A stretch of DNA of 36,329 bases from a virus (IMGVR_UViG_2737471834_000007); one strand, 5' to 3'. Counted from the first letter of the stretch, positions 1 to 36,329 are shown. Translations and numbers: made by a program. The notes: generated from the sequence alone by a model not told the origin.

Positions 1-174
1 ATGGGGTTATTGAACAGGAATGATGTCGAAGTTGAATTACACCTTTGTACCAGAGACGATGAGCCTAAAACCGCAAAGCTCAAATTAAGAAACATCAAAG
101 ATGTTGATGCGTGTGAGCGCCTGATTGATAAACTGGCTGCTGTGGTAATAACGTCAAAGAAAAATGAAGAATAA
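1..174 (+). CDS. Small ORF (57 codons) beginning at the first base of the window; hypothetical, may be a complete small protein or the 3' end of a gene to the left
   Basis: Open frame from ATG at 1 to TAA at 172-174; followed by a weak hairpin near 207-238 and a strong one at 291-312. No recognisable motif. Confidence 0.3.
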   Translation: MGLLNRNDVEVELHLCTRDDEPKTAKLKLRNIKDVDACERLIDKLAAVVITSKKNEE

Positions 175-290
175 TTGATAAGCCAACCACCATCTCTTGA
201 AATAAAAAGCCCACGATTAATCTTGTGGACTTTTTGCATTCAGGCTTGCGAGATAGGGTGCCTTATCGACCTTAACCCTGGCAACCGATT

Positions 291-321
291 GACGGGGGAT
301 TGCTCCCCCGTCGCGGTTTTC
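291..321. terminator. Stem-loop GACGGGGGA-TTGC-TCCCCCGTC followed by a T-run on the + strand; also lies directly 3' of the hok-like ORF on the - strand
   Basis: Perfect 9-bp inverted repeat at 291-299/304-312, then GCGGTTTTCTT. Confidence 0.45.
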
Positions 322-462
322 TTACTGTTTACATTGTAAGAACGCCGCAAACTCCGCACCCCAGAAGCTCATCCGTATTTCACACAGCGAACCGTGCAAC
401 ATCCAGATGATAAGGATGACCGTCGCGCAGAACGTGATGGCCGTAAGCGATTTTTGCGACAT
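322..462 (-). CDS. Hok/Gef-family type I toxin (46 aa small membrane peptide), missing from the ORF track because it is under 60 aa
   Basis: Translation MSQKSLTAITFCATVILIIWMLHGSLCEIRMSFWGAEFAAFLQCKQ: hydrophobic N-terminus, SLCEI motif and E-x-AAFL-x-CK tail resemble E. coli HokA as recalled from memory. AAGGAG lies 8 nt upstream of the ATG at 462; stop TAA at 322-324. Confidence 0.6.
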   Translation of the reverse strand: MSQKSLTAITFCATVILIIWMLHGSLCEIRMSFWGAEFAAFLQCKQ

Positions 463-482
463 AGCGCTTGCTCCTTTTTCAT
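369..482 (-). CDS. mok-like overlapping reading frame (37 codons) starting 20 nt upstream of the hok-like start
   Basis: ATG at 482 in a different frame from the hok-like ORF, ending inside it, as in hok/mok loci; no SD (preceded by CCTCC). Speculative. Confidence 0.25.
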   Translation of the reverse strand: MKKEQALCRKNRLRPSRSARRSSLSSGCCTVRCVKYG

Positions 483-727
483 GGAGGCGCTAACCTGTCA
501 CTTGCTAGGTAGACGGGATAGGGCCTCGGTTAAACAAAAGTGTTTTCCGGGGCCTTTCCACATCCGGCCTTCTGGTTTACCCTCCGACCATCAGCCGAAA
601 GGCACCCGCGTGTAATGTACTGATTTCATATTGTATGTGCAATGCTCGTCACATTTTTTAAATACGTGTAAAACGTAATTGCGCAAGAAAATGTAGTTTT
701 TATTCTGCTGATTTCAGCGTAGAGAAT

Positions 728-1108
728 TTATGAGTTCTGAAATTCTTCTGCACGCCTTTCCAGTTCAGCCATGAAAGATGTTCTGGCTTTTTCGTGAGCA
801 TCGGGGGCCATGATGCTGATGATTTGTATATTGTTATAATCCATCCAGTGCCTGGTATAAACCAGATAGATATTTGAAGTTCTGTCTATCTGGGCCTTGC
901 TTTTCTTCCATGGTGGTTCCGATGGTAGTCTTATGTGTAATTTATATACAAACGAACCACATAGTCTTGCGTTATCTTCCCACTGTCCTTCATTGCCGAA
1001 TCTGTCAGGGAGAACGCCGGTATTTAACCAGTTCTCCAGAGCTTTTCCGTAAATTTTTGCAATATCCTGGTATTCAACATCTTTATGAATACTTACTTTG
1101 CTCGCCAT
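728..1108 (-). CDS. Hypothetical cytoplasmic protein (126 aa), second gene of a two-gene cargo operon
   Basis: Start ATG overlaps the upstream stop by 1 nt (TGATG). No signal peptide. A YKLHIRL...IYLVYTRHW...IQIISI stretch is faintly RelE/ParE-like but not convincing. Confidence 0.5.
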   Translation of the reverse strand: MASKVSIHKDVEYQDIAKIYGKALENWLNTGVLPDRFGNEGQWEDNARLCGSFVYKLHIRLPSEPPWKKSKAQIDRTSNIYLVYTRHWMDYNNIQIISIMAPDAHEKARTSFMAELERRAEEFQNS

Positions 1109-1734
1109 CAGGAAAACTCCGGAGCCGGGAGTCCCATATTTTTATGCTCGGCAATAATCATTGTTTTCACATTTTCGTCAGACAGCGTATTGCCCAGACT
1201 GGTAGTTTTTTCAGGTGCAGTGCTTCGCTCGATGGCGTTGATGGTATCACGAACGATAAATTCACCCTGCGCAATTGCCCGACCAAAACGAACCAGTTTA
1301 TTGCGATAGGCGATTCTTTGCTCAAGACTGTCCGGATACATTTTTGCCAGGTTATCCGGGGCCATTACAATCCTGACAGCCTCTTTAACACGGGTGTGCT
1401 GCCTGAGTGACTCTTCGCATATTTTCGTTATTTTTGCTATGTTGTCAGTAAACAGCGCTCCTTTGCCTCTGTTCTGACGCTCTTCAATGACGGCATTGAG
1501 TGCAGCGCGCATGTTGTTATTCAGCCCGTTAATATATTCAATAGCTTCTTCAAGAGGCAGAAACACCTGGCCGTCATGATGCTCAAATGTAAGCATTGAA
1601 ACTACTCTGGCGTGCGTCCCGGATTCAATAACTGTTGTTGGTAGTATCGTGCTTTTAGCTGGCACCGGAGCCAGTGATGCTGTCAGAGCTGCAGCAATGG
1701 CAGCAATGGCAGCAGACTTTGATTTTTGTTTCAT
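1108..1734 (-). CDS. Predicted secreted/periplasmic protein (208 aa from the ATG at 1734; the track ORF starts at GTG 1746), first gene of the cargo operon
   Basis: N-terminus MKQKSKSAAIAAIAAALTASLAPVPAKS looks like a Sec signal peptide; GGAG 7 nt upstream of the ATG at 1734. No catalytic motif recognised. Confidence 0.55.
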   Translation of the reverse strand: MKQKSKSAAIAAIAAALTASLAPVPAKSTILPTTVIESGTHARVVSMLTFEHHDGQVFLPLEEAIEYINGLNNNMRAALNAVIEERQNRGKGALFTDNIAKITKICEESLRQHTRVKEAVRIVMAPDNLAKMYPDSLEQRIAYRNKLVRFGRAIAQGEFIVRDTINAIERSTAPEKTTSLGNTLSDENVKTMIIAEHKNMGLPAPEFS

Positions 1735-2215
1735 AATGCACTCCACAGGTTGATGTGTTCAGCATATCGCAAATAGCAACTTGCATAAAGAAACGCCACA
1801 TCGGCATCGATCGTTTTACGCGTTTTTTTTCTTGTTGTGATCCTTTTTTCAGTTTTATTTTACCCGTTAATTTTGCGCAGGCCGCGCCGTGTCTGGCTTC
1901 TTTGTCTGATGGTTGTTTGATGCGATCCCTTCGTGATCGTTTTTCGTCTCACGTAAAGTATGAAAACTCTTTTAATATCATGCTGTTTTATTGCTCCAGC
2001 CATTTGTGCGATCGAAAAAATCTCTCTTAAAATTGCAAAAAATTTCAAAGTGTGAAATTTCAGAACTTCGCTTTTCCCCCAGTTACTGCGCTGGCTGGCG
2101 GTCATTTTTGCACGACAGAAAACTGAAAAAGCGTTTCAACACAAAACCCGCGGGTTGGAGGGGGTAGCGCGGTTTACGTGACGTGACACTTTACGTCATG
2201 TCTGGCTGGTTATGT

Positions 2216-2241
2216 GCAAAATTGCCGCCTCAGTGAGGCGC
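2216..2241 (-). terminator. Candidate intrinsic terminator ending the long late tail operon (short stem plus AAUUUU on the - strand)
   Basis: On the - strand: CGCCTCA-C-TGAGGCG stem followed by GCAATTTTG, about 85 nt after the spike gene stop. Confidence 0.35.
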
Positions 2242-2325
2242 TGTCGTAATGATTTGATGAAAGGAGTGGTAACGCATGGGCATGGCTCATGCGTTATGTA
2301 ACGCGTGTTTTACGTGGGATTTATG

Positions 2326-4065
2326 TCAGGCGATAAGGTCGCGGTATTTTTCCCGCAGGGAGGATGACTGTCTGGCATCACCGGTAAATTCACCACTGTT
2401 GGTGGGTGTGCCTGTGCCAGGATGTGCGTGTGTGGCAGTATGTGTTGCCAGTTGTTCAATGAGATCCAGAATATCAACGAACAACGTCATCAGGTTCAGG
2501 CTGTCGCCACCCTGTGAACCATTTCGGCCTATAAACAGGGTCGGCGCAGAGAGGGAAAGACCACCACTGGCGGTGGTGGTCTGTGTACCGCTGATGTTCT
2601 CTGTGATATTCCCGCTTACTGTGCTGTTAACATTACCGCCGATGGTTTCCTGCCTGTCAGCACTGATGCGGCGTATCTCTGCCTGTAATTCCGCAATAAG
2701 GCTGTTTGCTTTCATCCTGATATCACCGGTGGCCACAATACCGTAATCACCATCAGAACCATGGACGATCTGCCCTGCCATCAGTGAACTCGTCCCGAGT
2801 ACCGTGGTACTGTCTGTGGCCTGTACGGTTGTTGTGCGGGTTGTCGTCCGGCGGCTTTCCTGGTCGCTGGTTATGATTCGGTGTGCAGATTCTTCCCTGA
2901 TTTTCTGGTCCGTTTCCCGGTGCCATGTGCCGTCACGGGTAACCCTCTGAAATACTTCTGCACGCTGTTGCTGTAGCTGCTCGCCAGGCTGGATATCAGG
3001 AAGATTCAGTCCGGATGGGAGTATCTGCCTTATTACCGGTTTATCTGGCCGTCCTTCGATATGCGCGATTTCCACTATCGTTCCGGCTTCCGGATAAGAA
3101 AAACAACCGGCCTCATTTCCGGCCATGGGTACCGGAAGCGGCACAGCAGGATATACAGGCGTGTTGTTGCTATCGTTGCCGTTTTCGTCCAGTAACTGCA
3201 GGTCAACAGCATAACGTGGGCGAAAACTGTCTGCCACATCGCCAAGCGTCGTGGATTCTGTTGGCGAGATAACGCGGGCCAGTCTTGGGCGTAATGTTCC
3301 GTCAGCCAGCTCCGGAAACTGCGATTCTGTCTGACGGCGCAGAGGTGAGCTGGATACGACAGAACCATCCTGGCGAAACCTGTCCCATGTCAGTGTCATG
3401 GTTTCATTATGAATGGCCACACGCGTGATCCGTCCTGCAGGAAGGTTAACGCCGGGGCGCAGAGTCTCTATCAACATGATATCCATACTGTTGCCGGCGC
3501 TGTGCCCCAGTGCATATTCATCAGGAATTTCCGGGATGGTCAGCGATGCAAAGCGTGAGTCACTGGCGCTGCCAACGAATACAGAACCATCCGGCATGGG
3601 ATGCCAGACGTAATCCTGAATGCTGAATATCCTGCCAAGATGATCAAGCAGGCGGGTACCGCTTCCGCTGTGAGTGACGCAGGGTACTGGTGTGGATACA
3701 TAGGCAGATGACGCGGTAATAAACACGATACCGCTCTTTTTTCCGAGATCATCAAGAACATCACGCAGAGTCGGGTGCTGGATGACACACGGAAAGCTGA
3801 AATCCAGTACCGCGGCAGCTTCCCTGATGAACAGACGGCGGGCGCCGTTTTCTGCCGGTTGATCGCGCTCAACGTAACCTGAGAAATAACGCCAGGCCTG
3901 GCCATCACGCCCAAAATCAATCTGAATCATGGCACCGGCCAGCGTGCTGCGCTGATTCGGCAGGGTGACAAAACCTCTTCCTGATGCGTTCAGTGACAGG
4001 ACCAGACTGATGTCTGTTATTTCTGTCTGTTTACCGTTTACCATGCATCTCTGAATAATTTTCAT
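2326..4065 (-). CDS. Baseplate central spike protein (gpV/VgrG-like C-terminal half with a ~330 aa N-terminal extension)
   Basis: AGTIVEIAHIEGRPDKPVIRQILPSG resembles the gpV OB-fold motif; C-terminal ATHTATHAHPGTG (H-x-H) resembles the spike apex of P2 gpV as recalled from memory. Start overlaps the upstream stop. Confidence 0.5.
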   Translation of the reverse strand: MKIIQRCMVNGKQTEITDISLVLSLNASGRGFVTLPNQRSTLAGAMIQIDFGRDGQAWRYFSGYVERDQPAENGARRLFIREAAAVLDFSFPCVIQHPTLRDVLDDLGKKSGIVFITASSAYVSTPVPCVTHSGSGTRLLDHLGRIFSIQDYVWHPMPDGSVFVGSASDSRFASLTIPEIPDEYALGHSAGNSMDIMLIETLRPGVNLPAGRITRVAIHNETMTLTWDRFRQDGSVVSSSPLRRQTESQFPELADGTLRPRLARVISPTESTTLGDVADSFRPRYAVDLQLLDENGNDSNNTPVYPAVPLPVPMAGNEAGCFSYPEAGTIVEIAHIEGRPDKPVIRQILPSGLNLPDIQPGEQLQQQRAEVFQRVTRDGTWHRETDQKIREESAHRIITSDQESRRTTTRTTTVQATDSTTVLGTSSLMAGQIVHGSDGDYGIVATGDIRMKANSLIAELQAEIRRISADRQETIGGNVNSTVSGNITENISGTQTTTASGGLSLSAPTLFIGRNGSQGGDSLNLMTLFVDILDLIEQLATHTATHAHPGTGTPTNSGEFTGDARQSSSLREKYRDLIA

Positions 4066-20999: not shown

Positions 21000-21938
21000 T
21001 TAAATCAGTTTAAACGTGTTGGTTTCCGGCGCTCTTCCAGGAATGGTGGTGGCTTCACGGCTGAGTTCGCTGAATGCGGTTTCAAGATTTTCCACCTTCT
21101 GTGCAATATTCACGATGGTGGAAAACATTTTCTGCAGTTGCTCTTCTGACTGGGTGAAGGTGGCTTCAGTGCCTTCAGTCTTCTGCGTGTTATCCTGTGC
21201 ATTCGTTGTCTTTTCTGCGTCAGGTTCTGATTTCTCCTGCGCTGACAGTTGACTGAACTGATTTTCCAGTCTGTCCAGGCGATCTCCGGTCTGCTGAATG
21301 GCGCTCATCATCTGGTTAAATTGTTCCTGGTTCATTGGTGCCTCTTCCTGTTTGTGAGGTGACGAAGTGAAAAAGCGGGAGAAAAAGCCCCGTTTGGCCT
21401 GCTCATCATCAGTCTGCAGCGTGAAATTCAGCGTTTCTGCATTCCCCATGCGGACAGCGTTACCCTGTGAAAAGTGCAGGCGGGTGGTGTTAATGCTGGC
21501 CGGTGTGTCGGTGACAGCGATACCACTGAGCCAGAATTTGCCGGTGCCCATGTAGTCATCGCTGATTTCCACGGATGTGAACAGCTTCTGTCCGGCCTTG
21601 TTGGCTTCCAGGAGGAAACGGTTCGGCACAATGCGGGCTTTGAGCTGGATCCTGTCGCCGAATTTTTCGGTTTTCAGTTCCTCAATTGTGCCGTAGTTGT
21701 TGGTGAAGGCACGCCAGCCAGGGTCAGCATGATATGGCCAGAGCATGGCAGTGTATTCTTCCGCGTTATAGACCTCTGTGGCATCTGTCAGCCATTTTTC
21801 TTCAATATCGCGACCGTCAACAGCCTTTCCCGAGGTGGCGACCACAACCCAGTCTGTTTTCTGTTTCGTCATAGGAAATTTATTCACTGATAAAACCGTA
21901 CTGCGGGTATTAGATGAATAATCCTGTGCCGGCGTCAT
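21000..21938 (-). CDS. Capsid scaffolding protein, gpO-like (start probably at 21872, MTKQK)
   Basis: WVVVATSGKAVDGRDIEEKWLTDATEVYNAEEYTAMLWPYH fits the gpO family N-terminal pattern; Gln/Glu-rich coiled-coil C-terminus. Confidence 0.65.
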   Translation of the reverse strand: MTPAQDYSSNTRSTVLSVNKFPMTKQKTDWVVVATSGKAVDGRDIEEKWLTDATEVYNAEEYTAMLWPYHADPGWRAFTNNYGTIEELKTEKFGDRIQLKARIVPNRFLLEANKAGQKLFTSVEISDDYMGTGKFWLSGIAVTDTPASINTTRLHFSQGNAVRMGNAETLNFTLQTDDEQAKRGFFSRFFTSSPHKQEEAPMNQEQFNQMMSAIQQTGDRLDRLENQFSQLSAQEKSEPDAEKTTNAQDNTQKTEGTEATFTQSEEQLQKMFSTIVNIAQKVENLETAFSELSREATTIPGRAPETNTFKLI

Positions 21939-22057
21939 CCTGTTTATTTCTGCTGTATTCGGATAAACCGGTATATCCGAAAATAACTGAATTCTGCTGT
22001 TCGTCTTCAGAAAGGCCTTTTTCGAAAATGGTCGAAGTTTATTTATACGGAGGAGTT
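21939..22057. promoter_or_regulatory. Divergent late promoter region between the scaffold operon (-) and the terminase-portal operon (+)
   Basis: Short AT-rich gap between divergent operon starts. The P2 late-promoter dyad TGT-N12-ACA was not found here. Confidence 0.4.
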
Positions 22058-23836
22058 ATGGCTTATTCTGATGAAGTGATAGCTGCTGCCCGTGCGCTGT
22101 ATCTGAAACGGTATACGCCGAAAGAAATACAAAAAAAGCTGGGGCTTAACAGTCCGCGTATTGTTTATTACTGGGCAACAAAATATGAGTGGTATACGCA
22201 GCTCAGTACCGAAGGTGTGGAGGAGGTGATCGCCCGTCGTGTGATGACGCTGACAGAGCGTGAACATAAAAGTCAGGAAGAGCGGGATGAACTTGATCGT
22301 CTTATCGGGCACCATGTGAAACTGATGTCTGCCAGACACAGACATACAGAACGAATGGCAGAAATTGAACATATGTCTGTTGAGATGGCAGACAGTTCGC
22401 CGGTATCCCGTGGTAACAGTGAAAGCGGTAAAAAAGAACGCCGACGTAAGGCTAATGATATTTCCGGACTGACGGCAGAGAGTTTTGAACCGTTTACTAA
22501 AAAACTGTTCGCTTATCAGTTACACCTTCGGAAAAACAAAATTCGCCGTGTACGTAATTTGCTTAAATCCCGTCAGATTGGAGCAACCTTTTATTTTGCC
22601 TTTGAAGCTTTCGAAGATGCTGTATTAACTGGCGACACTCAGATATTTCTGTCCGCTTCAAAACGTCAGGCGGAAGTCTTTCGTACCTATATTGTTAAAA
22701 TTGCACAGCAGGAATTTGGGATTGCAATTAAGGGTAATCCTGTCAGGTTAAGTAATATGGCTGAGCTGTATTTTCTGGCAACGAACAGTAACACCGCACA
22801 GTCAAACAGTGGTCACGTGTACATTGATGAATATCTGTGGATCCCCGGCTTTGAACGTCTTAATACGGTTGCTTCCGGTATGGCCACACACTCGCGGTGG
22901 CGTCTGACCTATTTTTCCACACCGTCCGGTAAAACACACCAGGGATACGCGTTCTGGTCCGGTGATGAATGGCGACGCGGAGATCCGAAGCGTAAACAGG
23001 TTGAATTCCCGTCCTTTGATGAGCTGCGTGACGGTGGACGCGAATGTCCTGACGGACAGTGGCGTTACGTGGTGACGCTGGAAGATGCCATTGCCGGTGG
23101 ATTTAACCTTGCCGATATCAACGAGCTGCGCGAACGATACAGTGAGACCGCGTTCAGGATGTTGTTTATGTGCCAGTTCGTGGACGACAAGGAGAGCATT
23201 TTCCGTTTTGAAGATCTGGAGCGTTGTGGTGTTGACCCCCGAATATGGGAGGACTTCAATCCTGATGAACCGGCGCCGTTCGGTAATCGTGAGGTCTGGG
23301 GCGGTTTTGACCCGGCGAGAGGGGGGGATAATGCCACGTTTGTGGTGGTGGCACCGCCACTGGTCGAAGGGGAACGCTTTCGTGTACTGGAAAAACATCA
23401 CTGGCGCAGCATGTCATTTCAGTATATGGCTGAACGTATCCGCGCCATTAAATCCCGCTATAACATGACCTTTATCGGGATAGATGTCACCGGGCTCGGG
23501 TATGGCGTTTATGAACTTGTTCAGGGATTTGCCCGCCGTGAAACCGTGGCCATTCATTACAGCGTTGAGAGTAAAAATCGTCTGGTGATGAAAATGCTGG
23601 ATGTGGTGGATGCCCGGCGCATCGAATGGGATGAAGAGGCAAAGGATATTCCGGCTTCATTCATGGCCATTCGCCAGGAAACCACAGGCAGTGGCAACAA
23701 AGTTACCTTTACGGCAGAACGTAGTGAGGAAACCGGCCATGCGGATGTGTTTTTCGCTATTGCCCATGCGCTCAGTAATGAGCCGCTGAATTACAAAAAT
23801 AAACGCAAATCAACGTGGGTTTTTGCTGATGACTAA
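22058..23836 (+). CDS. Terminase large (ATPase) subunit, gpP-like (592 aa from the ATG at 22058)
   Basis: GGAGGAG SD 5 nt upstream of the ATG at 22058; size matches P2 gpP; the track ORF begins upstream at 21914, overlapping the divergent gene. Confidence 0.8.
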   Translation: MAYSDEVIAAARALYLKRYTPKEIQKKLGLNSPRIVYYWATKYEWYTQLSTEGVEEVIARRVMTLTEREHKSQEERDELDRLIGHHVKLMSARHRHTERMAEIEHMSVEMADSSPVSRGNSESGKKERRRKANDISGLTAESFEPFTKKLFAYQLHLRKNKIRRVRNLLKSRQIGATFYFAFEAFEDAVLTGDTQIFLSASKRQAEVFRTYIVKIAQQEFGIAIKGNPVRLSNMAELYFLATNSNTAQSNSGHVYIDEYLWIPGFERLNTVASGMATHSRWRLTYFSTPSGKTHQGYAFWSGDEWRRGDPKRKQVEFPSFDELRDGGRECPDGQWRYVVTLEDAIAGGFNLADINELRERYSETAFRMLFMCQFVDDKESIFRFEDLERCGVDPRIWEDFNPDEPAPFGNREVWGGFDPARGGDNATFVVVAPPLVEGERFRVLEKHHWRSMSFQYMAERIRAIKSRYNMTFIGIDVTGLGYGVYELVQGFARRETVAIHYSVESKNRLVMKMLDVVDARRIEWDEEAKDIPASFMAIRQETTGSGNKVTFTAERSEETGHADVFFAIAHALSNEPLNYKNKRKSTWVFADD

Positions 23837-29492: not shown

Positions 29493-29780
29493 GGTATGGC
29501 CTCTTCGTTTGTAAGTTTGGGAAACTCACCATCCAGAGGTTCCAAGCTCGGGGTGGCGAGACGTACGGGGTTGGAACTACCGGAAAACGAAGAAACCGGC
29601 CCGACCAGAGTCGGCCCCGTACGCCCCGCCATAATTTGGGTGCGAAAACGGCGTGGCGATACGGTACGCACAAAAAAACCGCTGGCGCGGCTGTGCGCTT
29701 CGTTTGTCGGCGGGGTTCCAATCCCGGCACCCGTTTTATGAGGTGCAGCGGGAATGTAACCCGACAGATTGCGGCATGGC

Positions 29781-35801: not shown

Positions 35802-35877
35802 GTCTACTTAGAATGATGTTGATTAGTTTAACTTATTGATATGTCAAGGGGATGCCGGTATTTCCGGCCCCCTTCAT

Positions 35878-35901
35878 GCCACCTTCGGGTGGCGTTGTTT
35901 T
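35878..35901 (+). terminator. Intrinsic terminator downstream of int
   Basis: GCCACC-TTCG-GGTGGC followed by GTTGTTTTAT. Confidence 0.5.
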
Positions 35902-36046
35902 ATGCGATGTATCTCGCGATTTTTTTTTGTAACTTTTCCATCTTTTGCTTTTCTCTCCGAGCCGCTTTCCATATCTGCAATCGCATAAAAAACTCTGCTG
36001 GCGTTCACAAATGTGCAGGGGTAAAACGTTTCCTGTAGCACCGTGA

Positions 36047-36063
36047 GTTATACTTTGTATAAC
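36047..36063. promoter_or_regulatory. Palindromic operator in the chpS promoter
   Basis: Perfect palindrome GTTATAC-TTT-GTATAAC overlapping a TATACT -10-like hexamer, upstream of AAGGAGG and the chpS ATG. Confidence 0.55.
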
Positions 36064-36077
36064 TTAAGGAGGTGCAG

Positions 36078-36329
36078 ATGCGTATTACCATAAAAAGATG
36101 GGGGAACAGTGCAGGTATGGTCATTCCCAATATCGTAATGAAAGAACTTAACTTACAGCCGGGGCAGAGCGTGGAAGCGCAGGTGAGCAACAACCAACTG
36201 ATTCTGACACCCATCTCCAGGCGCTACTCGCTTGATGAACTGCTGGCACAGTGTGACATGAACGCCGCGGAACTTAGCGAGCAGGATGTCTGGGGTAAAT
36301 CCACCCCTGCGGGTGACGAAATATGGTAA
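36078..36329 (+). CDS. chpS: ChpS (ChpBI) antitoxin of the chpSB toxin-antitoxin pair (host gene); the chpB start codon overlaps its stop at 36324
   Basis: MRITIKRWGNSAGMVIPNIVMKELNLQPGQ...GDEIW is the MazE-type AbrB-fold antitoxin ChpS; AAGGAGG SD; terminal ATGGTAA gives the overlapping chpB start. Confidence 0.85.
   Translation: MRITIKRWGNSAGMVIPNIVMKELNLQPGQSVEAQVSNNQLILTPISRRYSLDELLAQCDMNAAELSEQDVWGKSTPAGDEIW

Follow-up and report, generated by a model that had tools for sequence, protein, structure and literature searches.

A probable cos site, rather than a toxin-antitoxin switch, in the intergenic gap of an HP1/ESSI-2-like prophage

What is the function of a non-coding gap rich in palindromes and repeats that separates the late genes of a prophage from a toxin-antitoxin-like gene pair? 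The gap in question occupies positions 1735..2325 of the window, i.e. of the whole stretch of viral DNA that was analysed (36,329 nt), and has a G+C content of 43.7% as compared to 50.3% for the window. Both flanking genes are carried on the minus strand; the gap lies 3' of the tail/baseplate operon and is 5' only of the pair coding for a 208-aa protein and a YafO toxin, in line with the original prediction, which had placed it upstream of the cargo operon. It is slightly longer than the 1747-2325 given there, because the downstream gene most likely begins with ATG 1734, ahead of which GGAG is found at 1741..1744, and not with GTG 1746. The original prediction took the gap for a control region of the cargo operon and listed four motifs: an 8-bp inverted repeat (AAATTTCA-N5-TGAAATTT, 2040..2060), a 12-bp perfect palindrome (AACCCGCGGGTT, 2145..2156), direct repeats whose starts are 17 bp apart (TTTACGTGA, 2173..2181, and TTTACGTCA, 2190..2198) and a terminator-like hairpin (2216..2241). 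All four are present in the sequence where it had placed them, the last one as an inverted repeat with a stem at about 2226..2240. The short ORFs of the gap had been regarded as spurious, and the comparison bears this out: the three ORFs are intact in 1/33, 1/33 and 3/33 homologous loci, and none of them had a Pfam or PHROG match where tested.

Taken singly, the motifs are only marginally unusual by shuffling statistics. In 1000 dinucleotide-preserving shuffles, P was 0.04 for a perfect 8-bp inverted repeat with a spacer <=10 and 0.19 for a perfect palindrome of at least 12 bp, and the count of 9-mer direct repeats was inflated by A/T runs. Since this support is marginal, the case for a function must rest on the comparison of sequences. 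The gap contained no Rfam family at gathering or permissive thresholds, gave no match to phage and plasmid collections (megablast, blastn), and a consensus sigma-70 scan found no promoter-like site in it; a terminator scan of 1600..2500 returned eight terminator-like matches, mostly weak plus-strand hairpins.

We propose that the gap very probably contains the cos site of an HP1/ESSI-2-like prophage and not a switch for the neighbouring toxin-antitoxin cargo. This assignment is based on synteny, on homology to defined cos ends, on conservation that is independent of the cargo and on the sharing of the site with satellites. The window is a prophage of the P2 family (Peduoviridae) of the HP1/ESSI-2-like type: it encodes P2-family capsid and portal proteins, gpM- and gpP-type terminase subunits, Ogr, GpA and an integrase; the gap and a cognate cos-type terminase belong to one and the same element. 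The closest sequenced isolates, ESSI-2 and the E. coli ESSI2_ev phages, have head genes of only ~66% nucleotide identity. The right flank (35802..36329) is the host antitoxin gene chpS (196 bits), a related prophage (L004) adjoins ytfP, and the integration site appears to be ytfP/chpS. A search for the att core as an exact repeat between the window ends (1..320 and 35802..36329) yielded an 11-mer as the longest match.

The gene that precedes the gap is the last late gene of the prophage. Its 579-aa product is 34% identical to orf35 of HP1/HP2 and 35% identical to the phiO18P homolog, in both cases over the full length (tblastn), and the gene is preceded by an HP1_ORF34-family gene, a DUF1353 gene and DUF4376/tail-fibre genes. 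A scan of genome contigs with the 579-aa protein gave no confirmed relatives. By tblastn, many linear phage records have the homolog as their last gene ahead of the genome terminus, and in the HP1/HP2 and phiO18P records it ends ~180-250 bp from this terminus. In the HP1 record, bases 1..9 carry the cosL annotation and 192 bp separate the end of orf35 from the right terminus, with attP/int coming next; in the phiO18P record, a 16-nt cosL/cosR is annotated 199 bp past the stop codon of the homolog. The corresponding distance from stop to end is 183 bp in ESSI-2 and 166 bp in SW5, and the cohesive end that we predict in the window begins 158 bp after the stop of the orf35 homolog. The gap thus has the location of these termini: it is non-coding, follows the last late gene on the att/int side, and the site lies ~150-200 bp from the stop codon.

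The ends of some of these phages are defined. PV94 has cohesive ends with 16-nt 5' overhangs as determined by run-off sequencing (PMC3986222), and its record terminates in CTCTTCCTCACCCGCC; the ESSI-2 record carries a 15-nt terminal repeat, CTACACCGCACCCGC, at both ends. An alignment that was anchored on the defined ends and took in phiO18P, PV94, ESSI-2, SW5 and HP1 places GCG^CTACCCCCTCCAACCC^GCGGGTTTT of the window (a caret marks a known or predicted cleavage position) opposite GCG^CTCATCCGCTCCCGCC^TGCGGGCTT of phiO18P and GCA^CTCTTCCTCACCCGCC^TGCGCGCTT of PV94, and the same region also aligns with the terminal repeat of ESSI-2. In a wider view, the minus strand of the window reads ...TGACGTAAAgtgtcacgTCACGTAAAccgcg^CTACCCCCTCCAACCC^gcgggttttgtgttgaaacgcTTTTTCAGTTTTctg, the counterpart of phiO18P ...CACGGAATccgcg^CTCATCCGCTCCCGCC^tgcgggctt and that of PV94 ...CACGGAATccgca^CTCTTCCTCACCCGCC^tgcgcgcttt...TTTTTTTCAGTTTTT. 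The features in common are the GCG^CT.. junction, the repeat at -13, a TGCGGG/GCGGG dyad and a T-rich box. A search of the whole window for the P2-type cos 19-mer was negative. Among IMG/VR contigs none was found that ends at the predicted cos, and the collections searched yielded no virion sequence of this lineage.

With the cos regions of the HP1 group (HP1 U24159, phiO18P NC_009542, PV94 HG803181) the window has in common the location 150-200 bp past an orf35-type gene and before att/int, a pyrimidine-rich cohesive-end strand that begins with CT.. and is preceded by GCG/GCA, a (C/G)ACG(G/T)AA motif at -13/-15 with further upstream copies, an inverted copy at ~+210 to +220 (PV94 excepted) and a P2-family terminase; a T-rich TTTTTCAG box ~35-40 nt after the start of the end is shared with HP1 and PV94. 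The window differs from this group in the sequence of the 16-nt end (CTACCCCCTCCAACCC), which is a predicted one here, in having ACGTAAA instead of ACGGAAA as the repeat, in the perfect 12-bp palindrome at the second predicted nick, and in its cargo (YafO pair, hok/sok), of which at least 1.5 kb separate the predicted cos from the prophage end; in HP1, only ~250 bp precede attP. About half of the positions of the cohesive-end sequence differ from ESSI-2/phiO18P, and because the overhang of HP1 is shorter (annotated as 9 nt), the length of 16 nt is extrapolated for the window. The ESSI-2 and ESSI2_ev phages have the same gene order as the window; in their cos regions GCNCTAC precedes CTACACCGCACCCGC, and a TTTTTCAGTTTT box, a CCAGCGCTGG-type dyad, an AATTTCA element and GATC at +154 and +229 stand at offsets matching those of the window, but ACG(G/T)AAA repeats are absent. 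Note that both ends of the record of ESSI2_ev129 (NC_049394.1; L011/L012) carry a Nextera transposase adapter (CTGTCTCTTATACACATCT...), and the phage DNA joined to it stops within the stretch that corresponds to the cohesive end. The adapters are an artefact of assembly that happens to mark the physical termini.

Table 1. Features of the gap and of its surroundings in the window. Offsets refer to base 1 of the predicted cohesive end; a caret stands between the two bases flanking a nick or a centre.
Feature	Position	Strand	Remarks
46-aa Hok/Gef-family ORF	322..462	-	in an unlisted type I toxin locus at 322..607
YafO-family toxin	728..1108	-	PF13957 YafO_toxin, E 1e-27
208-aa protein (cargo pair 728..1734)	1108..1734	-	start ATG 1734
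Candidate cargo promoter/operator block	1756..1797	-	-10-like TATGCT at 1761..1766
Whole predicted cos module, cargo-independent conserved backbone	1838..2198	.	86-91% identity, 48/51 matching E. coli genomes
Distal inverted repeat copy, plus strand CACGTAAA, minus strand TTTACGTG	1950..1957	+	~+211
Predicted cos core common to satellites, ~170 bp	2029..2198	.	satellites match at 77-78%
Inverted repeat AAATTTCA-N5-TGAAATTT	2040..2060	.	starts 107 nt after the end's first base; in satellite-shared core
G+C-rich dyad CCAG...CTGG	2079..2098	.	~70-90 nt after the end's first base
TTTTTCAGTTTT box	2119..2130	-	starts 37 nt after the end's first base
Palindrome AACCCGCGGGTT	2145..2156	.	centre 2150^2151, straddles second predicted nick 2151^2152
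Predicted 16-nt cohesive end, minus strand CTACCCCCTCCAACCC	2152..2167	-	aligned with phiO18P, PV94 and ESSI-2 ends
Cos-flanking repeat copy 2, minus strand TCACGTAAA	2173..2181	-	-13
Cos-flanking repeat copy 1, minus strand TGACGTAAA	2190..2198	-	-30
Hairpin GCCUCACUGAGGC then GCAAUUUUG	2216..2241	-	six-pair stem, ~-11 kcal/mol
Late-operon intrinsic terminator stem-loop	2270..2296	-	fold -13.3 kcal/mol in the window
Last late (tail/baseplate) gene, HP1 orf35 homolog, 579 aa	2326..4065	-	phrog_2258 baseplate, E 5e-213
gpM-like small terminase	19243..19950		PF05944
gpP-like large terminase	21914..23836		PF06056 + PF03237 + PF17289

The direct repeats of the original prediction are conserved, and a role of theirs in cargo control is not supported: they are the two proximal copies of a motif that flanks the predicted cos, at -30 and -13 (Table 1). 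In the form [CG]ACG[GTA]AA, which was defined after inspection of the data, this motif stands exactly at -13 in the window, L004, the satellite L015, SW5, phiO18P and PV94, and at -15 in HP1. A second copy is found at -30 in the window group and in SW5 (there as GACGGAA) and at -34 to -45 in PV94, phiO18P and HP1. The inverted copy is located at +210 to +220 in the window, L004, the satellite, SW5, phiO18P and HP1; PV94 has none near +210, and ESSI-2 lacks the motif altogether. Copy 1 is conserved in all loci next to a variable spacer and is a putative recognition element of the terminase (small subunit). The predicted cohesive end itself is invariant in the collected loci, part of which had been retrieved with that very sequence. 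Its staggered nicks are predicted at 2168^2167 and 2152^2151, and the palindrome at the second of them has an equivalent in phiO18P, where an imperfect dyad, CCCGCC^TGCGGG, is centred on the known nick.

On the other side of the predicted nicks, the TTTTTCAGTTTT box is present at a similar offset in the cos regions of PV94, ESSI-2, ev129 and HP1. The box was the search pattern for the IMG/VR loci, where its invariance is partly a matter of construction, but it is independently conserved in the BLAST-derived loci. The dyad at 2079..2098 is conserved in position and lineage-specific in sequence, with counterparts in ESSI-2, ev129, SW5 and PV94, and is a candidate for a structural element or a dimeric binding site. 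Five GATC sites (1809, 1839, 1924, 1935 and 2010) lie within ~260 bp to one side of the predicted cos, a length in which chance would give about one. Some of them occupy shared offsets: +154/+229 in the window correspond to +153 and +229 in L004, which also has +240; ESSI-2, which is barely alignable, shares +154/+229, and PV94 and SW5 have close GATC pairs near +203 to +224. The satellite examined has no GATC sites. The cluster could point to a Dam-dependent control, and the GATC-rich 190 bp at 1838..2028, which are conserved in phages and less so in satellites, might harbour a promoter or serve another purpose.

An alignment of 33 distinct homologous loci and a smaller one of nine loci separate constrained from free positions within the gap. 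Both arms of the inverted repeat at 2040..2060 are invariant around a variable spacer in the 33 loci including satellites; both ACGTAAA repeats are conserved around a 10-nt spacer that is free to vary; the palindrome, with single-base changes in 2/9 aligned loci, is nearly invariant. A block of ~36 bp at 2179..2144 of the minus strand, ACGTAAACCGCGCTACCCCCTCCAACCCGCGGGTTT, is nearly invariant, while 2199..2325 including the hairpin at 2216..2241 is poorly conserved. The IMG/VR loci were fetched with a pattern from the invariant block and their invariance is partly circular, but the BLAST-derived loci show the same pattern of conservation. A 14-nt pattern, ACGTAAACCGCGCT, was too unspecific in viral contigs and gave mostly chance matches; its loci were used only if a second pattern was also present. 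It is this conservation, and not the shuffling, by which we take three of the four motifs as real, i.e. the inverted repeat, the palindrome and the direct repeats, but not the hairpin. The original prediction was also right in that the gap holds more conserved elements resembling binding sites than a promoter requires.

The conserved module does not follow the cargo. Searched against E. coli genomes, the gap matched prophages at 86-91% identity, all matches ending at 2198 among the matches listed. In prophages with the same 208-aa/YafO pair the match spans 1600..2198; most of the matching prophages align only over 1838..2198, and in them the place of the pair is taken by hok, a com-like gene plus methyltransferase, or other genes. 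E. coli EC42405 / FHI_NMBU_10 have the module at 91% identity. Prophages with the module were found at no fewer than three integration sites (raiA, flk and a tRNA cluster). Conservation of the module is independent of the flanking accessory genes, and its core is common to satellites.

Two of the E. coli matches cover only 2029..2198, with 77-78% identity. The elements with such a core-only match carry a toprim primase, an integrase, an ogr/Delta-like gene and hok. One of them, the 52F4 element of 12.9 kb between hpt and gcd (L020, NZ_CM147848.1 ~2538800..2551600; also L016), has two integrases, an HTH regulator, an Icd-like gene, the toprim primase, ogr/Delta, hok, the cos core and a P2-family major capsid gene that is 43% identical to the capsid gene of the window; tail or terminase genes were not found in it. 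The element and the window have only three patches in common, namely the cos core, ogr and hok/sok. The 52F4 island may be a capsid-encoding P4-like satellite of HP1/ESSI-2-like helpers. A satellite that relies on the terminase of a helper must carry the packaging signal of that helper, and the sharing of the core therefore supports a cos function; the limitation of the match to 2029..2198 narrows the functional core to ~170 bp. P2 and P4 share their core cos, and variable-gene hotspots adjoin it (PMC9122126, in which Ziermann & Calendar 1990 is cited as the source for the P2/P4 cos). The window resembles this pair in that a phage and a P4-like satellite share the cos core, that variable cargo adjoins it, that the terminase is of the gpM/gpP type and that the cos ends are 5'-protruding (as predicted for the window). 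In contrast, the cos of P2 has a 19-nt end and adjoins the portal gene Q, whereas the one predicted for the window follows the tail/baseplate operon; and the 52F4 satellite, unlike P2/P4, has ogr and hok/sok in common with the phage as well and carries a P2-family capsid gene itself.

Typically, type II toxin-antitoxin operons regulate themselves through palindromic operators. The palindromes and repeats could accordingly be operators or activator sites of the cargo operon, for example for an autoregulation by the 208-aa protein and YafO, and the location of the gap directly upstream of the pair on the minus strand fits this idea, as does the general likeness to type II systems with their palindromes or repeats upstream of a toxin-antitoxin-like pair. 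We nevertheless consider it very unlikely, and the claim that the motifs regulate the cargo is not supported. The motifs are 300-460 bp away from the start codon of the cargo, too distant for operators of this type; they are not co-inherited with the pair but are kept where the YafO pair is absent and in satellites; they overlap no promoter, a sigma-70-like one not being detected near them; and the segment that covaries with the cargo, 1735 to ~1837 with the block 1756..1797, contains none of them. On these findings of distance, of loci lacking the YafO pair and of a motif-free cargo-linked block, a type II operator/promoter was rejected.

A transcriptional element common to helpers and satellites, either an Ogr/Delta-dependent late promoter or a distal control of hok/sok, would be compatible with a hok gene located 330-510 bp beyond the module in most relatives, with a satellite that shares ogr and hok/sok as well and with the Ogr-like protein encoded by the phage. 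This, too, has little probability in our opinion: a 1.1-kb insertion separates module and hok in the window with the module intact, the physical ends of HP1, phiO18P and PV94 show this architecture with no hok present, and the sok-like Rfam match at 449..607 is far from the gap. The P2-type TGT-N12-ACA dyad is absent from the gap (zero in 1747..2325), and a P2-type Ogr-dependent late promoter was discarded on this basis; the whole window has 14 such dyads against 10.6 expected, which is not above chance. Finally, the gap might be a late-operon terminator plus a neutral spacer or a recombination scar, in which the motifs arose by chance. The weak shuffle tests (P = 0.19 for the palindrome, P = 0.04 for the inverted repeat) agree with this, and so do the conserved terminator at 2270..2296 and the common end of the listed E. 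coli matches at 2198. Yet chance is hardly credible as the origin of a near-invariant block of ~36 bp and of invariant arms beside variable spacers in loci that are otherwise 73-91% identical, with motif positions that coincide with those of phages of other genera.

Under the assignment as a cos site, the gap would function as follows. After induction, the phage terminase (gpM-like small and gpP-like large subunit) would recognise the repeats flanking cos, i.e. the (C/G)ACG(G/T)AAA copies at -30 and -13 and, on the other side, probably also the TTTTTCAGTTTT box, the dyad and the AAATTTCA inverted repeat; all of these elements fall within the ~170-bp core. The terminase would then introduce two staggered nicks ~16 nt apart at the predicted positions, the second one within the palindrome, to give 5'-protruding cohesive ends (CTACCCCCTCCAACCC) that would re-anneal after injection. 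We infer the exact nick positions, the length of the overhang, the pairing of proteins and repeats and a looping to the copy at +211 from the comparisons described above.

It is conceivable, though rather doubtful, that the HP1-group cos has a previously undescribed, genus-spanning tripartite architecture with direct sites at -30/-13 and an inverted copy ~210-220 bp away. Such an architecture would consist of two or three direct (C/G)ACG(G/T)AAA sites on one side of the nicks and of the inverted copy, beside which a positionally conserved GATC pair, at 1924 and 1935 in the window, is present in the phages but not in the satellite examined. If so, the terminase would form a DNA loop across cos, cutting would possibly be controlled by Dam methylation, the single-base switch of the repeat from ACGG to ACGT together with the distinct cohesive end would define the specificity of packaging, and a new group of capsid-encoding P4-like satellites would exploit this specificity and parasitise this phage lineage of E. 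coli.

A cos site as such is nothing unusual in a phage of this kind and would be expected there, but it has been unannotated in this E. coli phage lineage. With the proposed assignment the annotation of the locus shifts from a cargo control region to a packaging site, and the cargo (YafO pair and hok/sok, in relatives nuclease/methyltransferase) becomes a variable hotspot adjacent to cos. The hotspot parallels that of P2/P4, yet in a different phage lineage and at a different cos position. The ~170-bp core could help to identify satellites and helper-satellite pairs of this little-studied group of E. coli prophages. In the direction of the minus strand, the proposed order is late-operon terminator(s), cos module, cargo promoter segment, 208-aa and YafO genes, hok/sok and prophage end.

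On the late-gene side of the predicted cos lie a conserved terminator and a terminator-like hairpin. The stem-loop at 2270..2296 folds with ~-12 to -19.5 kcal/mol in the relatives, where it is followed by TTTTC, and its stem shows compensatory changes among them (CAUG/CAUG vs CACG/CGUG). The terminator of the window (2262..2296) has lost the U-tract, with GCGTTACCAC in place of the GCGTTTTC of all relatives, and late transcription might read through towards cos and the cargo. The hairpin at 2216..2241, a 6-bp stem on the minus strand followed by AAUUUUG, is a plausible terminator of the preceding operon, in keeping with its description as terminator-like, but its columns are not conserved in the 33 loci. 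It is lineage-specific, possibly a secondary or substitute terminator of the late operon, and is not part of cos.

On the opposite side, the cargo-linked segment of the gap extends from 1735 to ~1800-1837 and has none of the motifs of the original prediction. Within it, 1756..1797 is conserved in L004, a 73%-identical locus with the same cargo, whereas the DNA towards the cos module differs. This block is likely the promoter of the 208-aa/YafO operon, judging from its conservation and its -10-like hexamer; the consensus sigma-70 scan flagged nothing in 1756..1797. The 208-aa protein had no match in Pfam, PHROG or NCBIfam and has about double the length typical of a YafN antitoxin. In RefSeq, some E. 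coli homologs of the protein bear the name 'iron-sulfur cluster assembly scaffold protein SufA', apparently by mis-annotation. Beyond the YafO gene, hok follows; in most relatives it comes directly after the cos module, and in the window the 208-aa/YafO pair intervenes. The accompanying sok-like Rfam match (449..607) is below threshold, scoring 35.9 bits where the gathering score is 59. Between the YafO gene and hok/sok, a TGT-N12-ACA dyad of the P2 Ogr type is present at 636..653. In the early region of the prophage, Rfam matches to C4 antisense RNA (83 bits) and isrK (68 bits) stand side by side at 29549..29746 on the minus strand, i.e. an immunity RNA module of the P1/P7 type inside a P2-family prophage.
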